This document shows, in pieces, positions 5,353-48,921 of a DNA stretch of 64,000 nt; position 1 is the first letter of the stretch; the number at the start of each line of letters is the position of its first letter. The notes under the pieces are model-generated. The model did no database searches. It was not told the origin of the DNA and saw only the letters and a list, made by a program, of their open reading frames with translations. The DNA is from Squalus acanthias. Taxonomy: Eukaryota. Where the stretch lies: contig CM059443.1 in the NCBI GenBank assembly GCA_030390025.1, positions 66,588,001 through 66,652,000 on the forward strand, in the 5' to 3' direction. The translations under genes and the position numbers were made by a program.

Positions 5353-5690
5353 ATCATAGAAGTTTACGGCACAGAAGGAGGTCATTCAGCCCATCGTGTC
5401 CGTGCCGGCTGAAAAAGAGCTCTCCAGCCTAATCCCACTTTCCAGCTCTTGGTCCGTAGCCCTGTAGGTTACGGCACTTCAAGTGCATATCCAAGTACTT
5501 TTTAAATGCAGTGAGGGTTTCTGCCTCTACCACCTTTTCAGGCAGTGAGTCCCAGACCCCCACCACCCTCTGGGTGAAATAAGTTCTCCTCAAATACCCT
5601 CTAAACTTCTGACCAATTACTTTAAATCTATACCCCTAGTTATTGACCTCTCTGCTAAGGGAAATAGGTCCTTCCTATCCACTCTATCTA
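5353..5690 (-). mobile_element. CR1 (HER1-like) LINE 3' fragment
   Basis: Minus strand encodes DRVDRKDLFPLAE and ends ...CCTTCTGTGCCGTAAACTTCTATGATTC, the same tail as the long CR1 at 20366. Confidence 0.85.
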
Positions 5691-13981: not shown

Positions 13982-14194
13982 GTTGCAAGACCAGCGCACA
14001 AAAAGAAAGCCCGCATGGCGCGGACCCGCTCTGATTTCTTGACTAGAGGCTCTAACGCTGAAGGGGAGGGAGAGACTGAGGAAGAGGAGTATGATGACCC
14101 CTCCGTTGAGCCCCCTCTCTCCCCCGACCAACCTAGGCCTGAGCTGAGACCCAACGACAGTGCCGGACAGGCCTGTTACAGTGACTCAGAAATG
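13982..14194 (+). CDS. myo9a: Myosin IXa exon VARPAHKKKARMARTRSDFLTRG...SDSEM (71 aa, probable cassette)
   Basis: aatcag| and ATG|gtaaat; 213 nt, phase 0-0; matches a recalled MYO9A long-isoform insert. Confidence 0.93.
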
Positions 14195-17100
14195 GTAAAT
14201 AAAACATGGCCAATTGGGTGCAAGTCAAATCTGGAAGCATCTCTTTGCTAACCCTTAATGTGGGGTAGAAAGCAATACTGACATCTGGAACTGCTTAACC
14301 TCCCCTGCCTTTCAGATTTTAGAAGGCAACACTCTATGCACAAGCACGGTACCTTTCTCTTTAGATTTCTGTGTCCTTTTCGCAGTGTACTGCAGTAAGT
14401 TTTGCTGCTGTATACAGGGGCCATAGACAATGATACCCTCCTTACCGCACAAAAGTTTTTCCAATTTGTTTCCTGTATACAACATTAGTTGCATGAATTA
14501 TTGACAATGGCAGCACTTTAACCAGTTAAAGCATTGGTTACACTTTAACAAACTACATACGGCATAACGTGCATTTCCCTGCTAGCTGCATTGTAACTAT
14601 GGGGTAGGATTTTTAAATAATGAGCTGCAGACTTCCCTGCCTTTTCATTCGAGATCACTGAATTCAGTAACCAAATGACCAGTGTTGAGCTGGTTTCACT
14701 GCAGAATGCGTTGTGTTGCAGGGTCATTTTCTCAGTTTCTGTGCCACCTCAGTAACTTGTGGTGTCACTCCAACAATTCCAGTCACACTATTGCACATAT
14801 ATGTTCAGTATGTTCCGCTGACTGAGAATCAATGCATTTTGTATTCAGTAGATTTTACCAATTCGGCACTACAAGCCTGCATAAAAATATTTTTACACAT
14901 TCCCATTTCGACCCTCATCTCCTGAAGGCATTCACTTTCTGCAGTATAGTTCCATGGGTGCCACCAGCTAAAACAGTAACTCAGTACAGATCGGGGGCCT
15001 CTGATGATCGGGGGCCTCTGATCTTACTGGAACATGTGGTGAAGCTTGGAATGAGCTCAACTGCGATGACCCCCATTGGTTAAATATGGGTCAAAACTAG
15101 CTGTCTAGGCTCGAACATGAAGAACAGAGTAAGGTACAGGAGTACTGCCACAACCCATGGAACTTTACCCCAACAAGAGTTGGCACCTTCAGGAGATGGA
15201 GATAAGATAGGAAAATTGAAGACAATCCCCATTAAATTAAGAGTATATTGAGTAAGGTGCTTTTGAATGTGTTTGAGTGTTTCCTTTTAAAACAGCCAAA
15301 TATTTGGGACTTCGACCACCACTGTCCTGCACTGGAAATCTCTGCTAAACTCTCGGAGATCTGGTCACACTCTTCCTGGACTGGGTATGGGCCATTCTGT
15401 TACTAAGCCAATCTTCTTCACTAGCCCCTACTACTTCCCTGACTGTGTCGGCCATCACAGTATTCACCTCCCACTTGTAGTGGACTCGATTTAGCAAATT
15501 ACTGCATGCCATAGCTTAGCTAACTGCGCTGCTCGGTTTGTACTTGCACATCTGTTTTCCCCCTTTCACTTTTAACACCTGAAACTCGATCTATATTCTA
15601 ACCGGTGGGTTTTATTAACAGCACAGCAGGTAGCTTATCAGCTAAATGCCACTACCTCTTCTGGTTTTTTTTTCTTCACTGGCTTCATTTTGGTGTGTCC
15701 TTTACAAACTAGCCAAAAAGAGTGCTGGAAATTTTAGTTTTAACTTGTGAGTACATGTGAAGTGAATTGTCGACTTTAGCTGTATGCATGTCTGTTAACT
15801 GAATACTTTATAAAGTATATTATGCGGATATTTTTCACCCTAGTTGCATTTTTAAGTTGCAGCCCAAAGGTTATAAAGTGATTTCTCACCAAGTGTGTTG
15901 CAGTTGCACTAAGAATTATATTTTACGAGTCACCAGATTTGATCACAAAGATCTTGCACCGCCTGTGTCCGACCCCCAATACTGATGTTGTCGATAATCG
16001 TCCCAACTACACTGTTTGTTGTCTTGTATGGAGCAGTGAGGTTGGACAAACTGCAATGTGGGGGCCGGCACAGATACTGACCAAGGATTCTTCCAGTCGA
16101 CATAAGATTTTTCACACGTTAAAAGATCGATCCTCGCTATGTACTCTATTCATTATTGTGTGCTGCCTCAGAGTTCAACTTTAGTGGATTTCAGTTGCTC
16201 TGAAGCCAAAGTCTGACTTGCCATTTGAACAATTAGAATCTGATTTCCTTTCTCGGCAGCCGAATGCTAGTATCCTGATAGCGGTGCAAAAGAGTCCGTG
16301 TTTGGACCAGTCTTGAGCTGATCCTAGTGAGACAGTGCCACCTACAGGCCTCTATAGGCACCAACTGTGTTCTTTCATTACGTCATGGCTAGCCCTTGTG
16401 CAGGGTGTCACTGCTACTGTTAGTCCTTTGTTCAGTCAGTGAGAGTTCTCAATCTGTGGTATGGTTTATATAAATGGGATGAGGAATTAGATGCCTGTCG
16501 AGGAAGACTTTTAACAGTTATTTAAATTTTCAGTCTTTTTTTAAAAAGTTAAAGTGTTAAGACTTAATTTCGCTCCAGTCAAGACTGTGTTCTGAGCCTT
16601 ATAGTAAGTATCTGATCCTGGGAGTGATGAAGAAATTAATCTCAGCAGAACGAGCAGTACTGAGCAATAAGGTGCGTGCAGGCTATTTGACTTGGGGTCA
16701 GTATACACACATGCACACGCGCTCTCAATTTCCAGGAAGAGTCACTAGAGAGCGATCCAGAGCAGCAATATTGTTTTTTTCCCCCCTCCGTAGCTCAGGG
16801 ACACCGCGGCCAGTTGTGGTGCCTCCATCGTTGCCCAGGCTGAGATCAGTTGACTCGGTACAGACCTGAGATCAAATCTGGGACCTTACTGCTGTACCAT
16901 GCCGGGTGATGCATCTAACTACTGAGGTATTTCAGTACCCCAGGGACTCACTCTTGGTCATAAGCTCAGGAGACCATACCTTTTCACTACCTGATATTTC
17001 TGTGTCTTATCCTTGCTTCACTCTGTTAAATGTTAACTTGAGCTAAATGTTTTGATTAGTTTTTTTATGCACATTCTTATAAAAAAGTGTGAATTCCTCT

Positions 17101-35554: not shown

Positions 35555-37300
35555 GTAAGCAGGAGTTGTAACCCCAGTTCTCTGAATCATAGAAATGGAT
35601 TCAGTCATTTCAGCAGAACACAAAATAAGCAAAAAAAACAAAGCATTCAACTGGTCACTGGCCTTTTCTTGTAGTGTAATATTTAGCTGCAGTGATCAAT
35701 TTCCTATGTATCCAGTAAAATAAGTTTGTTTCTGGCCTAATCTGAAGTGTCATTTTGGCTCAATTAGTTGCTCTTCCCTCCGAGTCAGAAGGTTGTGGTT
35801 TTCTAAGGCCCACTCCCAAGATTTGAGCACTCCAGTGTTGTACTGAGGGAGTGCTGCATTGTTGGATGAGATGTTAAGCTAAGGTTCCATCTGGTGGTTC
35901 AGGATGTTATAATCCCATGACATTGTACTACAATATCAGCTTGCACTTTATAGCGCCTTTCGTTCACAAAATTTTGCACAGTGCTTTATTTGGGCTTGGG
36001 GGTGGGGGTGGGGGGAAGCAAGGAATCTGAGCAGGAGAAGAGAAGGAATTGAGAGGGGGGGGTTGGTGAGGTGTCCAAAAGCACAGTTAGAGGTAGGTTT
36101 TGAAGAAGCTTTTGGAGGTGGGGAGTTTAAGAAGTTAATTCGTGGAAGATTTGTAAACAAGGATGAGGTTTTTGAAGCCAATGTGCTGTGGAATGACGAG
36201 GCATTATTAAGGATGGGAAGTGATGATTCAGGTTAGGGTAAGAGTGGCAGAGTGCTGAACAAGTTTGACTTTTTCTACGATTGGACTTGGGAAGCCAGTG
36301 AGCTGAGCATTGGAGAAATCAACCTGGAAGTAGGCAGCTCCCAACAAAAACAGGGAGGTCTCCCAATATCCTGGCCAACGTTTCTCCTTCAATCAATTTT
36401 GCCAAGAGACAGATTAACTGAACGCATCTCATTACTGTTAATAAGATCTTGCTGTGAGCAAAATGGCTCCCACGTTTGTCAAGCAAAGAACAGTCACTGA
36501 ATTTCAAAGTAATTCATTGTACTTTTGAGACACCTCCTGAAGGCTCCAGATATATGTCACTTTTCAGTCACATGATATGCAAGCAGTAGTCACCTGTCCG
36601 TTGCCCATCAAGACATCTCGCCAAAAAAATGCATATTGCAGTCTCTGTTGCATTGTAACAGTTGTTAAGGTCGGGTTGAGGTAACGGTAGTAAACTGCTC
36701 AAAATTTGAGTTGCTGTCTTGCAACATGTTCCAGCCTACGTGCTACCCTGCAGATCTGATGTAATCCATCTGATGTTTCTTCCCTCCCCCTGTGTCTCCA
36801 TCCTTTCTGAAAGGGCTTATTGTTGCTGGGGTATAGTTTTACTAGTGCCAGCAGCCCTCTTGTGCCTCACCACCTCAAGTGGCCATTCCTCATATGAGTG
36901 TCAGCAGGTTATTCAATACGAGTGGTCGGGGAACCACTCCTGCTCCTAGTTTCCACTGAACTCGATCCTCTCCTCACTCAAGGTCCACATGTGCACTTTC
37001 TAGCTGAAGTTGCATGATAATGATCAGGAACGGGACTTTTGGCTCATTTTCCTCTTCCCCAACCCAGAGGTGCTGAAGCTAATTGTAACATCCTACTGCC
37101 GCATTGACGAATTAGCTAACTCGCCACAGAACAGGACTGGGACCTGGAACTTTCTTGTTCTGTATGATGAAGCATTTCACAATATAAGTAAATGATGTTT
37201 ACCAGAATTACAGCCTGGCATTCAGTCTTGGTATGATTTTCCATCACATGATTGAAATGCAGCTTCTGATGAGATAAAAAATTATTTTGTGTAATCACAG

Positions 37301-39627: not shown

Positions 39628-39751
39628 GTGTGTGGAGTTGATTATTGTGGAGCAAATGAACAAGTACCGAGCACGGCTGAAGGACATCAACAGCCTGGAG
39701 TTTGCAGAGAACAAAGCCAAGAATAGACTGTCGCTCATCCGACGCTCAATA
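39628..39751 (+). CDS. myo9a: Myosin IXa exon CVELIIVEQMNKYRARLKDINSLEFAENKAKNRLSLIRRSI
   Basis: cttgcag| and ATA|gtaaga; 124 nt, phase 2-0. Confidence 0.97.
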
Positions 39752-41984
39752 GTAAGATCTTTTTACTTGAATTTTATCCGGATCTGTGACACTGCAATCT
39801 TGTTTCTTGTTCTTCATGTATTGAATGGAGACAGGTATTGCATTATAATATAGCAACATATTTGCATTTACACAGAATCCCAGTATCATTAGAGTCTTGT
39901 CCATTCAGGTTGTCTGTCTGGGTGGTGCGTTGTTCTCATTCTGTCTGTCTGTCTGAATGCTAGGAGTCTTTGCTGCATCCCACCATGGTGCTGATTCAGC
40001 ATGTATGTTTATGCTCGCTGTTCTGAGAGGTTGTAGCACACTGTTTGCTGTTCATGTGAATTGGTCGTTGTGCTTAAGGCCATCAAAGATTGAGTGACTG
40101 TCTGGTTTAGTCTAATGCAGCTTCGTGGTGATTTTTATCTGTGTGTGGGAAGGGGCACTGTTGGCAGAGGGCGACAGTGAATGCTGCTGTGTGACCCTGA
40201 GTAAACAGGTCGTATGTCTAAGGCTGCAGTTATAGTTACTGTTTCACAGCGATGTTGTAATATGGGATTAGATCCCAATCTGACTTCTGGCACAGAGCAA
40301 TGCGAGACCACCTTGGGTAGGCAAACTCACACCATGTGGAGTATAAATCCAGTGTATGGTGTGCACTGTTTAAAAAGTTATCAAGGGATCTGTAGAGCCT
40401 CTTGGACACTTTCTAAACATTACAGGAATTTGGGCACTACCGCCTGCACTCTCTAAAATGTTCAGAATTTACTGACTAGGTGTGGTGTGCTGGGCACATG
40501 CACTGAGCTCTTTTTCAGCTGTTAGTCTGGAAGTGGAAATAAAGAATGTTGGAGGGCATTCTTGCCACATTGAACAGCGTTTTCGATAGCCTCGCTTCCA
40601 GGAATAGTCTGTTCCGACAGATCCCCATAGACAGCAGTCTGCATCGTGACACCAGCTGTTGCAGAGGAAACTTGTGCAAAGCTTTTTCTTTAATTTAAAT
40701 TTATTTTCGCAGTAAAACTCACACATCTGTAGTGGCAATCATGACTGTAGGCACACTGTGGCACAGTGTTCAGGGTAAAAGCTCCTATTTCCATGGCTCT
40801 CATTTACTTGGTGCCAGGAAACTGCACGCAGTGTTTTTTCTGTTATATCCTCGAGATAAATTTTTAAAACTGGAAACTTTTACTGTTCATCTCTTGTTTT
40901 TTGCCAGGCTTTACCCGTACCCTTGAATCTGTGATTTTGGCAGGCAGTCAGCTGTCTTCTGTTACTGGATAATGCTAATTAACGAGGTAGCAGAAATTAA
41001 ATTGGTTCAACAGCCTATACGGGCACAGTACAAGGTCAGATGAAAAGGAAATTTCAGGGGTGCCTGTTGCTTAAAAAGACCTCATCTTGTTGCTGTGTGA
41101 CTTCCCATCCCCAAAATGTAGAAGAAATGATCCCTGAAAGATTGAGAAATACATCATCAAAGAAAGGATCCAACATTCTTTTTCCCACCTCTAGTGATTC
41201 TCGTCAGGTAGTCTGCCCTTTCCTTGTATTATCCAATCCATTCAGTTTCTTTTATGTTCCAGTATGAGTTGGAGTGACCAGCCACTTTGTTTTCAACTGG
41301 TCTGTCCAATAATTCTGCAAAATGAAAACCGGACTGAAAAGTGCAATTCCCATGTTGAGTGTTTAAAAAGGCCGCAAGCTAGTGGGGAGATAAAGGGTTT
41401 GATCTCTCGTGTGTGAGCCTGGGGCTGATCGTGGAAGTATAAAGCAGTTTGTTGGTGCATGCGTAAAGAAGTATGTGTAAATGTGGGGTGGGTAATTTTA
41501 CATTCGTATATCCTTATTCAGTCCCATTTGACATGTGTGCACAGTCTCTTTTAAATGTCCTGCTTGATCCAGTTCTGGACTTGGAGAAAGGCAGCCACCT
41601 TTGTCCAAGCGTGCAGCGAGGCCAACAGTCTTTTTTGAGCCAGATGTTCAATCTCTTGACCAGTTCTGTAATATGTAATATTCTGCAACTGCTTGATCTG
41701 AAGATGGAATCATTCTATCCATGTGCCTTGTTGTTGGGGATGGTAATTCTTGTACTGCCAATCTGTTTTAATTGTGTGAAATCACCCATTACATCGCTGT
41801 CCTTGCACATTACCTGTTAATTTGTGTCTCTGTCTGTCTGTTGCGAGCTTATCATTCTTATCATGAGGTGCACTTAACTTTTGGAGGGCTGAATAATGAT
41901 TATTTGCAAAACATTACGGAAATTCTTAAAAATTGGGTTACTAATCCAAATAAATTTTAAGTTTAATAATAGTGAAGAGTTTAT

Positions 41985-42370
41985 CTCCCCCAATGGCCTA
42001 TTGCGTAAAGGCTCTGCCCTGCAGTCCCTGGTCTGTGTATGAGATAGTTGATCTCAGCTGGGGTGGTGTTGGGGAGCTACAATTGGCTTCAGCACCTCTG
42101 GGTTAGGTATGTTAAAAATCAGCGAGAGTTCCCACTCCTGATTGCTGCCCAGTGACTTCTGTTGATCAGTGAGTGTGTGTGAATATCAGGTGAAGCCAGA
42201 ATCGTGCTCGGCTGAGATGCCCTCCACAGTTAAGTAGCCTATTGACAGTCCTGGTCTGTGCTCACACATGAAGATTGGCCACTTGGGTGAGCTGCCAGAG
42301 GGCAGCCAGTGGCTGTGGAATTGCACTCCAACAAATGTTATTATCTTCAGAGAGAGGAGGAGATAACGTG
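41985..42370 (+). mobile_element. MER131-like ancient SINE (one of ~18 copies in the window)
   Basis: Shared blocks GATCTCAGC, CTACAATTGGC, CCAGTGAC, CACACATGAAGA.TGGCCACTTGGG and TTCAG.AGAGGAG recur across copies. Name from recalled consensus. Confidence 0.7.
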
Positions 42371-42610
42371 GGGATGGGGAAGGATGAAAAGTAAAACTGT
42401 TGTGTGCAAATTATAGAATGAAAGCAACTGATACTTAAATTTAGTTGAGAAATGATTATACGAACAAGAAATTATTTTTTTCTTTCTTTACTAACTGTTA
42501 ACTAACACAGAACAAAAAAAACATTCCTTTTCCTGCAGTCTGCATGTTCCTGTTGAATGCACGGTCACACTAACCTGATCCTCTACTTTTCGTGTTCTTT
42601 TCCACTATAG

Positions 42611-42664
42611 AAACCGGTTATAATAGCAGTTAGATTCATGAGCATGAATCGCAGTTCGATTCCG
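42611..42664 (+). CDS. myo9a: Myosin IXa 54-nt cassette exon KPVIIAVRFMSMNRSSIP
   Basis: Branch point CACTAAC (about 42568), long pyrimidine tract, tatag| and CCG|gtaggt; phase 0-0; resembles the recalled mammalian insert KPVLIAVRFMSITRSSVS. Confidence 0.88.
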
Positions 42665-43782
42665 GTAGGTATTTCTCCCACCATGTCACCGCTTCGTGTC
42701 CATGATCCCATTCATTACATGATGGTCTACCCCAAGCCTAGGGCGTGACCCAGTTGTGTGTTGACTTGGAACAGAATGGGGGTTATGCTGATTGGAGTTA
42801 TTGATCTTCAGTTTTAGTTGACTGAATTACCTGATTCTGTTGGCTGTTGTAAGCGTTGCTTTTTGTGATTGTTTGAGCATTGGAGTTTGGTTCTGCTATC
42901 GTGTGAAGGGGCTATAAAATGGTGTCTAAATTCTGGTATCGTTCAGTACATCCCTTGGGCGATGGTACTACACAAAAACTACTGGAGCATTCTCGCTCTA
43001 CCATTCATCACAAATGATAACTTTCCACATGTAAAATCCACTCAAGAAAGAGCAAGAAGCCACTGCAGCACCAAAGAGGCCAGAGAAGGTCACCAGCATG
43101 AGTATATTCAAGACAGAGATCGATAGATTTTTGGATACTAGGGGAACCAAGGGATATGGGGATAGTGCGGGAAGGGGAACTTGAGGTTGAAGATCAGCCA
43201 TGATCTTATTGAATGGCGGAGCAGGCTCGAAGGGCCGAATGGCCGACTCCTGCTCCTATTTCTTATGTTCTTATTTCCTGTAAACTATGAATATCAAATA
43301 TTATAAATCAGAAATGTGTGAACACCGAAAATGTTTAACTTGAGTGGGTTAGAGGGGAAACCTGTACTTTTCATAGTGGTTTCACCATAGAAACTAGCTG
43401 TCCTTCATACTGTGAACACCATCCTTTGTACAGTGATCAGTAATTCATACTTCGTTCCTTTGAATCGTTGCACAAAGTTCTTAAAGTAAAGGAAATTTAT
43501 TATATGTGAAATAGTTGTGCTCTTCAGCAAAAGTGTTTTTTTTAAAGAATTTTTTTCAAGAACATGTGCATTTAGTGTTGGAAAGCTTACACCAATTCAT
43601 GCCACCTTTTCATTGATCAGTGATCTTCTAGGTTTATGCTGCTGGTATTTGTACAGTTGATATTGTTTGTTAGGTGCCACTTAATTCACTGTATAGGTAC
43701 TTTGTACAGCCTGTGTTTGCTTACTTGTCACATCTACGTTGCTGTGACACAGCGGTGACAAGTAAGTGTGTATAGATGGTAC

Positions 43783-44131
43783 AAAAGCAAAATACTACGG
43801 ATGCTGGAAATCTGAAATAAAAACAGAAAATGCTGGAAATACTCCGGGCCAGGCAGCATCTGTGGAGCGAGAAACAGAGTTAACGTTTCAGGTCGATGGC
43901 CCTTCGTCAGAACTGGAAAAAGCTGGAGATGGAACAGGTTTTTAAGCAAATGTAGGGGCAGGGAAAGGGGGGAGGAGAGGAAAGAACAAAAGGGAAGGTC
44001 AGTGATAGGATGGAAGGCAGGAGAGATTAAGAGATGGTGCAAGGCAAAAGGAGATGGTAATGGGACAAGTTAAGAAACAAAAAATGGCTCTAGATGGAAG
44101 GTAGGAGAGATTAAGAGACATTAAGAGACAT
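43783..44131 (-). mobile_element. Penelope-like element terminal fragment (349 bp) with 16-bp TSD
   Basis: TGTGTATAGATGGTAC at 43767-43782 and 44132-44147; carries a minimal hammerhead. Confidence 0.85.
43878..43914 (-). ncRNA. Minimal type I hammerhead ribozyme motif (Penelope-type)
   Basis: Minus strand AGUU-CUGACGA-AGG(gccaucga)CCU-GAAA-CGUU-AACU: intact CUGANGA/GAAA core, stems I and II, palindromic ACGU stem III. Confidence 0.75.
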
Positions 44132-45994
44132 TGTGTATAGATGGTACTAAGTAGTTATCTACACACTGGATTAAGTGGCACCTAAAAGTAGTCAGTACAT
44201 TCCAGAATAGATAGTTCCTATAACTACACACTTTGTCTGTACATTTTATTGCTTAAATGAGAGCGATGTTATGGGGCCGGCACTGACACACAGAATGAGC
44301 TTATAATATTTAAATTTATTTCCAACTTTATGGCTTGGTAAGAATAAAATGTCCTTTAAATGCAGAGGCAGTGTGTAGCTGAGCTGGACAGACCAGGAGG
44401 ACACCAGGTTCAAGTTCCAGTCTGCGTTGAGTTCGCTGATCTCAGCTGGGGTGTTACAATTGGCCTGGACACCCCTGCGATAGAGACACGAAAACGTGGC
44501 CAGGGTTCCCACTCCTCATCGTGATCCTGACACTTCTGCTGGAAAGTGCCTGTATGTGATCTGCTTTTATATCAGCTCTGTCCCTCGCGAAAACAGAGTG
44601 CTGAGGCCGCTGGCTCCTGACTTGCGGGTCCTGCACGGACTGACAACAACCCCAAGATCTGTTTGGGTCTTCCCAGCTTCCTTCCTAGATGAGTCTGACA
44701 TGTTTACCTTCGAGCTGTTGCTGGCTGTACAAAACATGCAGGTCACAGCCAGCAGTGGTAATACGCCAGAAAACCAATATAGAAGCTGCTAGTGTTGGAA
44801 CAGTCCTGTCAAATTTGCTCAGAGTACAAGGCCAGTCAGTGTGTCCCAGTCGACTTTTTTTATATTTTAGCAGGGATAGTCTTTATTTAAAGGTTTGTTT
44901 TGTGGCAGATTTCTTTGCATGGAGAGCTATTACATAGCATTGTTGTGGATCTTTGAATGACATGTTTCTGTTTCACTTTATCGGGGCTTAAAGCATTAGC
45001 ACTCTCAGTACCTGGTGTAATCAAGTGGATAAAATGCATCATTGAATTTAAGTGGCCTTCCCTTTTAAATAAAAGGCAAGCTTCTGTGGTTCAATTGCCA
45101 ACCAACGACTCTCTGAAAATCCAACTAGCATTAAATTTAAACATTGTTGATTGGAGGCAACCTTGGGTCTTAGCAGGTTCTGAATGTGTCTAGTGTTGCT
45201 TTGCAGTAAATGAACTCCACCCTCCCCCCCCACCCCCCACCCCAGCAGAGGAGCCACATTAACGCTTGTAATTCTCGGAATACTGTTCTGTAGCAGGTTG
45301 CTCAAAGTCATTGTTGCATTGCTGTAGGATGGCCACCGCTCTATCCACTTTACAACTAAACACTCGGCTTTGGGATGGGATCTCCGTTAATCAGCCCATT
45401 AAAATTGGACCATAAATTTCCAGTTTTTGAGAGATACGAGAAGTTTTTTGAAAAAAATGTGGTCTCGCATGCACTGTGTAAAAATGTTTGTCAAGTTGCA
45501 GCATTAATTTCTGCTCCTGGAAGTTAATTCCACAAATTGTCTCAAACACGTTCACACTGTGGGTGTGAGTAAGGCTCAGGTGATTGTGTTTTTCTTAAAA
45601 CGCCACAAGCCTAGCCTTGTCCATTTTTGGATTGGGCAAAAAGGAGCACAGTGCACTTATGTAATAGGTTAAATATTAGGCAGCCCTGTATCACGCCAGC
45701 GTGTTGTGGTGTGCTGTAATAAGATGCATAGTATTGAAGCACTGTATCTGTGACAGGCAATAAGAGCTGATTACTTGGCCTGATGGCATACATGTGTAAG
45801 GATGAGCAGTAGTAACGTAAATGACCACCATTGCATATCTCTAAAGTATGAGTGGGTGGAATTGAATTGATTAAAGCTAGCAGTGAATCATCTTGGTCCA
45901 CACCATTTCACGATCACTCTCCGTCTTTCTGGAAATGAGTTCAGTAAGAGAGTTGCTGAAACTTTTTCATGTTTTCTCTTTGCCGCCCATGCAG

Positions 45995-46012
45995 CCGAAT
46001 GGTAATAAAAAG
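45995..46012 (+). CDS. Candidate 18-nt myo9a microexon (PNGNKK)
   Basis: Strong pyrimidine tract, atgcag| and AAG|gtaatc; phase 0-0; no transcript evidence available. Confidence 0.55.
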
Positions 46013-46459
46013 GTAATCTCTCAGCGAATGGTTTATCTGTGTTATGTGCTTGTAGTGATCTCCTTTTCCTGGTGATGGCTCTTCAAAAAGATTGTGTCAG
46101 CACTGCAACCACTCCAGCGCATGAGGGATGCCCACCACATGTGATTTTAAAATGCAACAAAACCTGCTTATCACATAGTGCTGAATAATGTAGAAAACAA
46201 TTCTAAAACCATTTTCTAATCACTTCTTTATGGTTTAGCCTGAAAATTGGGTGTCAGGTTTTATATCATGCAGTTAAATTTAATCTGGTAACTGCATCCT
46301 ATCACAATTTGACGGAGACTGAGCTGTACATTTCCCTACCTTGGTCTGATGTGATTTGCTCTGGAATACGCCACAGGTATAGGATATGTGAGCAGCACTG
46401 AGCTTTGATCTCACCATTTTGTCTTCCAATTTAACACCAAATTAGATGCATTCTTTGAC

Positions 46460-46612
46460 TGTGGCCTGTTCCCAATAGAAACTGGAGTGAGATGAACTCT
46501 TTTCATGTAGACCCTTAAAGCCAGAGGCAGATTTCATCTCATCAGTCTGGGCTGGAGTTGAGCCAGTGTCCCAGAGGTGAAAGGCTGTTGTACTAATCTG
46601 CCGCACCACTCA
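46460..46612 (-). mobile_element. LF-SINE-like 5' (tRNA-derived) fragment
   Basis: Minus strand GCCTTTCACCTCTGGGACACTGGCTCAACTCCAGCCCAG closely resembles the recalled LF-SINE head GCCTTTCACCTCTAGGTCACTGGTTCAAATCCAGCCCAG. Confidence 0.6.
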
Positions 46613-47235
46613 ATTAAATGAAGAGAGGTCACTAATTAAAAGAACAGGTAAATGGGATTAGAGCTGATGGCTCCAATTTGGAGCTAGCACCATTGCAAGC
46701 CCCATGGGCTGAACAGTCTCCTTCTGTGCTAAAAATGTCAATGATTAAAAAAATATCAGATTACTTTTTTCGGGTTGTTATGAAGTGTGTTAATCTCGTC
46801 TTGTGTTTATTACCTTTGATGCTGCTGGTTTGGAGTAAGGTATTGATGAGAGGCAGGCCATTTGCTGGAGTGGAAGCAGGCTGGGGTTTGGCTCTGATGT
46901 GTGTTCAGATTTTGTTGCTGAATGTTCTGTGGTTTCCGTGTGTAAGTCTGTGTCATGCTGGTGTTTTCCTTTGCATAACTGTGACTGGTACTACAGCTGT
47001 TGATTATCTCGATATGAATTAAAAAGCAACGTTGCTTTCAAAATCTTCAAATTATGTTGGAAAATCACATTCTCTCAACTCCTGATTCAAGAAAAGCTTC
47101 CGGAGACCAAGAAACCTTCCACCTCTGGTGCCTGCTTGTCACAGCAGTGACCCAGTGCCACTCCCCAGCTGAAGAACTTGGCCCTGTCTCTTGTATTTAG
47201 GTTTGCTGATTTGCAGCTATTTTTCCTGCATTCAG

Positions 47236-47247
47236 ATGAAATCAACT
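47236..47247 (+). CDS. Candidate 12-nt myo9a microexon (MKST)
   Basis: tttttcctgcattcag| and ACT|gtaagc; phase 0-0; no transcript evidence available. Confidence 0.45.
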
Positions 47248-48718
47248 GTAAGCCAATCTCTCAGCTTTCTGAGACCAAAAACAAAACTGCTGGTCATCAA
47301 AAAACTAATTAACAATTTTGGAAGAAACAAATAAAATGTTTGAAATAATATCAGTGCAATTGTCTTCACAAATTGCAACACTATAAAGAGGTGCCATGCA
47401 TCATTTGCTGCATCCTCAGTGCCTACCCCCATCCCGCCCCGCACGCCATTCAGCTGTCTGCATGTGACCCAGGTCAAGGTGCTCTCTGTGCTTTGCTGCC
47501 CTTCAGTACTGAGAGAAGATGAAGTGCTTTCTGTGCCAAACAGAAAGTGGACGAGTGCTTCACAACAGGACGGCATTGTACAGACATTGACGTTACTGGG
47601 GTTTAACCCTAATTTTGGAATTAATGTTTGGCAAGGGGAGGGGAACTATCAGACTTAATTAAGTTTAAATCTAAAATCAAAGAGCTTAATCAAGATACAG
47701 TATAAATTAAGAAGCAAACTTATTGCCAAGAAACGTAAGAGTAAATAGAAAGCTTGTGTAATTGTGAGCTGCAAGTTACCCTGTCCAAAATGAAACCCTC
47801 TCTGTGTCCTGAGCTTGTGAATTTGAAACTTTTTGATTAGTTTCTTTGTACTGGTGATTGTGCTGTAGAATGTCAGAGACAGCTGCGGAATTACTGCACA
47901 ACCAATCAATATCTGCGTTGCAAGGAAAGTGGAGGGAGCTGTGAGTCTGTAGATTTAGAGGTGATTGTGGAAGGAGCAACATTGGATTTACTCTACCACG
48001 TACAGTCTACAGGCTTTTAAAAACAAAGCTGGCCATCGCCCACTTCATGATTTACCTTCTCTCCTCTCCAATTTTTTTTTGCCAATTTTCCCCTCTAATT
48101 TTTCTCCCCTTTTCTTCTGAAAGAGATAACTCCCCACTGAGGTACAGTCCTGGCACTGGGTACTTTTGGGTACGTGAAGTGGCTGCTGTTCTGCGTGAGC
48201 CATAACTGCAGGCTATTTAACTATGGGGGCATCACAGCAGAGTCCAGTCCTATTCTCACCCAATGCTCACGTGTGCTTCGATCAGCGACCAGTGGATTGC
48301 AATCGGGAGCAGGAACCCTGCCAAGATCAGCTCAATCAGCACAGACTGGGGATCGAACTTTAGATCTTTCTGATCTGTATGGCTCGGATACTCACGGGAT
48401 AGACACTGAGCCATTGGGAAACCTTTCCTAGTCTTATCAACCTTCATGGCATCCTGTATCATGACCTTGATCCTTTGCCTAGTTTTCTCAATTTAAAATA
48501 ATCCAACACCGCAAGTGCGAAAAAAAAGGTGAATTTGTGACTGATTCATAAATAAAGGTTTTGTATTATTGTAAAGTAAATTGCCATTAATGCCCATAGA
48601 GCACTTGATTGAAGTCACTTGTCCTGAACACACTTTCTACTTTGTGGACAAACTCTTCAGTTGGTTTTATTTCCTTTCATATTGTGACTGAATAGCTTGT
48701 TCTTTGTGACTTTTATAG

Positions 48719-48921
48719 GGAAAAGGTCGTCTTCGCCGCTCAAATTACAGCAGCCCCGCCTCTCCAGTGGGAATGCGACTGCCATCCGTCGCAGACGTTC
48801 CCGAAGAAACGGCGAGTGCTGATGAGTCGACTGACATGGATCTGACTGAGCAGCAGCAGGTGGCCATGCAGCAGGAGGAGAGGGCACTAACTGAGCAAAT
48901 AGAGACCCTGCAAAAAGAAAA
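48719..48921 (+). CDS. myo9a: Myosin IXa exon GKGRLRRSNYSSPASP...QQEERALTEQIETLQKEK
   Basis: ttttatag| and AA|gtaaga; 203 nt, phase 0-2. Confidence 0.96.

Follow-up and report, generated by a model that had tools for sequence, protein, structure and literature searches.

Two in-frame alternative exons in the tail linker of shark MYO9A, one of them a microexon likely under SRRM3/4 control

Introduction

The closest described counterparts of the splicing pattern reported here are alternative exons of the RhoGAP myosin gene MYO9A in mouse and zebrafish. Mouse Myo9a has a 54-nucleotide (nt) cassette exon near its 3' end (CA-270163-162534-164363-164417-173549, module M2+), with a percent-spliced-in value (PSI) of 0.50 in developing cortex that climbs to 0.68 to 0.82, and Dataset S9 of the same study scores this exon 0 as a target of Rbfox, Nova, Mbnl, and Ptbp (PMC5989265). 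Zebrafish myo9aa has an 18-nt exon (DreEX0048798; chr7:56777112-56777129 in danRer10) classed as a retina-enriched microexon (RetMIC), microexons being defined as exons of 3 to 27 nt; its PSI is 75.3 in retina, 15.6 in neural samples, and 1.1 in other tissues, it falls in eyes at 5 days postfertilization from 35.9 in the wild type to 0.6 in the srrm3 mutant, and the exon is lost in srrm3 mutants at four stages (PMC9303857). Here, we analyze a stretch of 64,000 nt from Squalus acanthias (assembly GCA_030390025.1, 3.7 Gb, contig CM059443.1, positions 66,588,001 to 66,652,000 of the forward strand), hereafter the window, which comprises the 3' two-thirds of MYO9A/myo9aa from the end of the motor domain to the stop codon, and examine one of its introns, at positions 39752 to 48718.

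The supplement of the zebrafish study (all 18 files) contains no human, mouse, or chicken MYO9A row, and its main text mentions neither myo9 nor shark (PMC9303857). The supplements of PMC12626424 (12 files), PMC13281805 (2 files), and PMC12626420 (12 of 13 files) likewise hold no myo9a rows. A literature search at full-text and abstract level returned no paper on the MYO9A microexon, what it does, or its disappearance from tetrapods, although more may be contained in subscription papers, in VastDB, and in supplements on bioRxiv.

A preliminary description of this intron, made from its sequence, proposed a cluster of at least four in-frame microexons combining into up to 16 linker variants under SRRM3/4 and Rbfox control. 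We consider it highly probable that two alternative exons of this intron, of 54 and 18 nt, are real and in frame and lengthen a hinge between the post-RhoGAP and C-terminal helices, that the 18-nt exon is likely switched by SRRM3/4 in retina or neurons, and that the four other candidates are likely chance.

Results

The intron lies in phase 0 between the exon ending in LSLIRRSI and the exon beginning with GKGR, with the coordinates and frame given in the preliminary description. The features that carry the main finding are as follows.

39628 to 39751, + strand: constitutive MYO9A exon, long helix C-terminal to the RhoGAP domain, last residues LSLIRRSI
39752 to 48718, + strand: phase-0 intron of 8967 nt, GT..AG, skipped through joint 39751->48719 in four of four sequencing runs examined
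42541 to 42546, + strand: TGCATG, 70 nt 5' of the 54-nt exon, candidate only, with the motif at background density
42570 to 42574, + strand: branch-point-like CTAAC at -41 of the 54-nt exon, consensus match only
42611 to 42664, + strand: real in-frame cassette exon, KPVIIAVRFMSMNRSSIP, joined to the 18-nt exon in a contig of run X1, its peptide recurring across species
45981 to 45992, + strand: likely SRRM3/4 element (putative), UGC at -14 and -5, 3' of the pyrimidine tract
45995 to 46012, + strand: real in-frame microexon, PNGNKK, supported by the X1 contig and a 6-amino-acid (aa) insert in fish gene models, single copy in the assembly
48719 to 48921, + strand: constitutive exon, disordered linker GKGRLRRS..., then start of the C-terminal helix

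Ten sequencing runs were available, none of them recorded as RNA; runs X1 to X7 are presumed to be RNA, and four of the ten were examined. All four contain the skip joint. In addition, a contig of run X1 (depth, 17.4) leaves the genomic sequence at 42664, continues with 16 bases that match the first 16 of the 18-nt unit, and returns to it at an AG that also belongs to the downstream acceptor; both exons, of 54 and 18 nt, are therefore spliced to each other and into the downstream exon. The exon pieces listed from the runs show no differences to the window. In X1 the downstream exon has a depth of 40.3, about the sum of the skip form (21.9) and the form with both exons (17.4), which is suggestive only. 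Joints to the 39-, 12-, and 9-nt units or to the acceptor-like site at 40908 are absent among the joints listed; since contigs drop rare forms, this is no evidence of absence. The preliminary description would have been undone had skip and 54-nt products alone appeared, and the X1 contig holds the 18-nt exon too.

Splice sites were scored with a generic vertebrate frequency table, and chance was gauged on 200 fourth-order Markov resamples of the intron and on 35,614 bp of the other introns of the same gene. The mere existence of AG..GT units is uninformative, because the intron has 794 such units of a length divisible by three and at most 60 nt, 509 of them stop-free. The 54-nt unit ranks first in the intron (acceptor, 5.7; donor, 4.6) and the 18-nt unit second (5.2 and 3.2), followed by the 12-nt unit at 47236 to 47247 in fourth place (5.2 and 1.2) and the 39-nt unit in twentieth (-0.7 and 2.0). 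The last of these had been proposed without coordinates, and the best-scoring stop-free unit of that length, 39964 to 40002, was used as a stand-in. Units reaching both scores occur per resampled intron 0.02 times at the thresholds of the 54-nt unit, 0.13 times for the 18-nt, 0.37 times for the 12-nt, and 3.2 times for the 39-nt unit; the other MYO9A introns hold, per 9 kb, none as strong as the 54- or 18-nt units, approximately 1.0 as strong as the 12-nt unit, and approximately 3.0 as strong as the 39-nt unit. The 54-, 18-, and 12-nt stop-free units announced earlier are present in the DNA, as are the stop-bearing ones at 40908 and 43753.

Both exons recur in gene models of other species. Cartilaginous-fish records were obtained by a profile search in which ten clusters were expanded, three of them in part (15 of 18, 23 and 31 members); counts exclude fragments, P0562 (which ends 5' of the junction), and the partial model P0001, in which the tail of the 54-nt exon is joined straight to GKGR. 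Among the 107 full-length records listed, from 22 cartilaginous-fish species, 67 skip both exons, 31 include both, 4 include only the 18-nt exon, 4 include only the 54-nt exon (all from Pristiophorus), and 1 continues from the 54-nt exon into the intron. The 6-aa insert occurs in 9 of the 22 species, as PNGNKK in five sharks, PNGGKK in three rays, and PNATKK in a chimaera, and in four ray-finned fishes, as PNNTRK in sturgeon, PNATRK in gar, PNSSRK in bichir, and TIAAKK in Gymnodraco, the one teleost. The 18-nt exon is in this sense deeply conserved among vertebrates. Within the nine cartilaginous species that have the microexon, four have a model including it alone, and none has a full-length model with the 54-nt exon alone. 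The isoforms of Stegostoma tigrinum match the window without essential difference, albeit in a different shark species: RefSeq myosin-IXAa X1 (XP_059496158.1, both exons), X2 (XP_059496160.1, 18-nt exon only), and X3 (XP_059496161.1, skip) have identical inserts at the same junction.

The same or nearly the same 54-nt exon peptide is found in 11 of the 22 cartilaginous-fish species, gar, bichir, frog, turtles, birds, and mammals, with models spanning chimaera to human; among mammalian isoforms it appears in 46 of 253 scorable records of the first, mammal-dominated set. The mammalian exon (KPVLIAVRFMSITRSSVS in mouse) shares junction and length with the shark exon, and its N-terminal 11 residues are near-identical. 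Across 343 non-fish records, 251 skip, 86 have the 54-nt exon only, and 6 corvid records have a 22-aa insert plus the 54-nt exon, while the 6-aa insert occurs in none. The 54-nt exon stands alone in tetrapods, whereas in fishes having the microexon it is modeled only together with it.

The 18-nt exon has the properties of a microexon: its length falls within 3 to 27 nt, it keeps the frame, it is spliced in the X1 contig, and it is modeled in 13 fish species. A true microexon beside a 54-nt exon, in a linker that is alternatively spliced, bears out that much of the preliminary description. The zebrafish exon DreEX0048798 is likely its orthologue, because it lies in the same gene, has the same length, and the sole 6-aa isoform difference recurring across fish species is at this junction; other ray-finned fish models hold a 6-aa insert at the shark junction, whereas the tissue and Srrm3 data are those of zebrafish alone. 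SRRM3/4 control had been suggested from TGC near several of the acceptors. It is likely for the 18-nt exon, given UGC at -14 and -5 and the collapse of the presumed zebrafish counterpart in srrm3 mutants, with neural or photoreceptor restriction and SRRM dependence known from that likely orthologue alone. It does not extend to the 54-nt exon, which exceeds the 27-nt limit and has no TGC within 25 nt of its acceptor. UGC alone is a weak criterion: TGC at -15 to -3 is found at 20% of all 585 AGs in the intron and at 8 of 20 constitutive acceptors, and UGC in -15 to -6 at 15% of random AGs.

It is also conceivable, if rather improbable, that the 18-nt exon is real and yet, in sharks, a broadly neural or muscle exon regulated jointly with the 54-nt exon through factors different from SRRM3/4, the retinal Srrm3 dependence being a teleost specialization or belonging to another exon. 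The closeness of included and skip depths in X1 (17.4 versus 21.9, contig depth being a poor measure), a GCATG 107 nt downstream, upstream YCAY at about twice background (9 per 250 nt versus 4.0), and the teleost peptide TIAAKK being the most diverged would all fit such an exon, but its length, the UGC at -14 behind a pyrimidine tract, and the loss of the zebrafish exon in srrm3 mutants (PMC9303857) argue for the SRRM3/4-switched microexon instead, as does the fact that, of 6-aa isoform differences, only the one at this junction recurs among fish species.

The Rbfox component of the preliminary description is probably wrong. TGCATG occurs 4 times in the intron (0.45/kb) versus 27 times in the remaining window (0.49/kb), which is background density. 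Near the exons lie a single TGCATG, at -70 of the 54-nt exon, and a single GCATG, at +107 of the 18-nt exon. In mouse, the 54-nt exon is not a called target of Rbfox or of Nova, Mbnl, or Ptbp (PMC5989265).

The remaining candidates, likely chance pairs of splice-like sites, are listed here.

39964 to 40002, + strand: 39-nt candidate, likely decoy, acceptor -0.7, about three such units per 9 kb by chance
40908 to 40946, + strand: strong acceptor-like site, likely decoy, acceptor 9.4, donors at lengths divisible by three at most -2.5, in-frame stop in the 39-nt form
43753 to 43761, + strand: 9-nt stop-bearing candidate within a palindrome, unsupported as an exon, donor 5.5 (the best in the intron), acceptor -0.5
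47236 to 47247, + strand: 12-nt candidate MKST, likely decoy, about one such unit per 9 kb in other introns

No 4-aa (12-nt) or 13-aa (39-nt) insert occurs in the 465 scorable proteins of 600, and both units score at chance level; the claim that they are exons is unsupported. It is very unlikely that in-frame exons, four or more in number, are combined at will to give as many as 16 variants, with the 12- and 39-nt units restricted to some tissue or lineage and missed by annotation. The acceptor of the 12-nt unit is indeed a reasonable one (5.2), preceded by UGC at -9 and by a branch-like CTGAT at -30, and annotation does miss microexons, as 13 of 22 cartilaginous-fish species are without a model for the real 18-nt exon; against this stand the absent inserts and chance-level scores, and even the two real exons are not freely combined, the 54-nt exon occurring alone in none of the nine species with the microexon. 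Three or more real small exons combining independently, as a multi-microexon cluster would have, are not seen here: with two real exons among the six candidates, at most four linker states can arise instead of sixteen, and cartilaginous-fish models show just four. Given a common 11-mer behind both donors, we also considered whether the 12-nt unit might derive from the 18-nt exon by duplication and decay. This was rejected: of 174 acceptor-like sites, 7 attain the local score of 44, which is not significant.

The 9-nt unit sits in a palindrome (43670 to 44185) whose outer arms, of 30 nt, lie at 43670 and 44156; its inner stem is a perfect one of 12 bp, and no other such non-AT stem exists in the 64 kb. 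The inner stem covers the donor, and the predicted stem covers both acceptor and donor. A high-copy repeat of about 350 bp, with target-site duplication at 43767 and 44132, interrupts the right arm; without it, the palindrome forms a 161-nt hairpin of -71.1 kcal/mol (z, -7.3; 200 shuffles). A young multicopy element was rejected, the arms being single copy in the assembly at the sensitivity used, and we favor an old palindromic transposon remnant. We give very little credence to the 9-nt unit being a poison microexon hidden in the hairpin and triggering nonsense-mediated decay when the stem opens: it does have the best donor score of the intron, UGC at -13, and that strong, donor-covering stem, but its acceptor is weak (-0.5), a palindrome can itself create a donor-like word, and the transposon remnant would explain the hairpin equally well.

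Several further features of the intron and gene were observed. The exon at 39628 to 39751 is 100% identical over 41 aa to Pristiophorus myosin-IXAa and matched by contigs with no differences, and its helix is predicted in a mammalian structure model. The window exons, compared with 18 cartilaginous-fish proteins, best match Pristiophorus (87.9%), then Heptranchias (85.7%), as would probably be the case for a squalomorph shark. The intron, called repeat-poor in the preliminary description, is so only in part, with high-copy repeats at approximately 43099 to 43275 and 43780 to 44140 and lower-copy repeats elsewhere; an Rfam search of it matched no family. Read-through of the 54-nt exon into the intron (42665 to 42748) gives an open frame up to a stop. 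Amblyraja model P0584 (isoform X8) ends by such a read-through, and its first approximately 15 read-through residues resemble those of the window, which would imply that the intron flank is conserved and that a truncated isoform may exist. The corvid 22-aa insert (Corvus proteins P0461, P0464, P0466, P0467, P0487, and P0490) directly precedes the 54-nt exon peptide, is found in crows only, and is likely a lineage-specific extra exon in the same intron. In the teleost-like proteins P0270 and P0272, the GKG after the junction is missing and RV follows directly, which suggests a shifted acceptor in some teleost copies.

Elsewhere in the gene, strong-scoring in-frame candidates of 3 nt (5542 to 5544) and 9 nt (14386 to 14394) lie in other MYO9A introns, and no matching inserts were seen in the pattern-readable cartilaginous-fish records (63 and 76, respectively). 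Two Scyliorhinus torazame proteins (P0547 and P0556) have a 21-aa insert in the RhoGAP domain region after VLRAMG, at a junction corresponding to the window intron 35555 to 37300. The ESRP1-enhanced Myo9a cassette is also an alternative exon in the tail of this gene, but it is 213 nt long (PMC9550651; bioRxiv 10.1101/2021.05.18.444719) and matches window positions 13982 to 14194; ESRP1 control of the present intron was rejected on this ground. The 213-nt exon is skipped in a Pristiophorus isoform, and an ESRP1-type switch may date back to sharks.

Discussion

The two exons fall at a defined place in the myosin tail. In the Stegostoma protein the Pfam RhoGAP domain spans residues 2219 to 2365, and the splice junction follows residue 2422. 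An AlphaFold model of a squirrel skip-form fragment has a helix at residues 138 to 192, a low-confidence coil at 193 to 234, and a helix at 235 to 269, with the junction after residue 191, which would place the inserts at the start of a flexible hinge. The predicted disordered hinge of 42 residues would grow by 6, 18, or 24 residues, to 48, 60, or 66, and would gain basic charge (+2, +3) beside GKGRLRR as well as a conserved hydrophobic stretch. Such inserts may tune partner binding or the reach and geometry of the tail in neurons and photoreceptors rather than the GAP fold. A C-terminal fragment of rat Myo9a, its last 297 residues, binds the AMPA-receptor subunit GluA2 (PMC4719083), and the junction, at 261 to 279 residues from the protein end, falls within it. 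SRRM3/4 would act via the UGC at -14 of the 18-nt exon, and in fishes the 54-nt exon would mostly be included together with the microexon, giving the states skip, 18-nt only, and both. The microexon itself would date from the ancestor of jawed vertebrates and would have disappeared on the way to tetrapods.

Several points weigh against this account. Inclusion is seen in one contig, from one of the four runs, which are only presumed to be RNA, and among the joints listed none leads from the exon ending at 39751 into the 54-nt exon. No 18-nt model is listed for 13 of the 22 cartilaginous-fish species, among them Pristiophorus and Heptranchias, the closest to the window. Isoforms of gene models are nonindependent counts, and for this reason coupled inclusion of the two exons is only hinted at. 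Mammals, birds, and turtles are overrepresented among the non-fish records, which include one from coelacanth and none named as lungfish. The likely orthology to zebrafish and mouse was assigned by gene, exon length, and position. The zebrafish exon is retina enriched and low in other neural samples, while shark models suggest co-inclusion of the 18-nt exon with an exon that is broadly included in mouse brain. The squirrel structure model is poor overall (mean pLDDT, 43.6), with two confident helices, and no functional test of either insert was found in the literature.

A bolder scenario, which we put forward tentatively and think unlikely, is that sharks, rays, chimaeras, and ray-finned fishes have all retained from their jawed-vertebrate ancestor a six-residue photoreceptor microexon, driven by SRRM3, which gates the 54-nt exon 3.3 kb upstream, and that the loss of this microexon on the way to tetrapods freed the 54-nt exon as a general brain exon.

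Public gene models already include both real exons, and the shorter one has a likely counterpart in zebrafish that is on record as a retinal microexon dependent on Srrm3. By itself the finding is an ordinary one. It adds a dated example of a microexon, which from its distribution is at least as old as the divergence of cartilaginous from bony fishes and appears to have vanished from tetrapods. Since the inserts fall inside the GluA2-binding fragment, the isoforms allow a direct test of whether splicing tunes the tail of a RhoGAP myosin. If the 54-nt exon of fishes indeed depends on the microexon, the locus would offer a simple system for studying how exons are included together and how such coupling is lost in evolution, a natural case in which coupled exons were uncoupled through the loss of a microexon.

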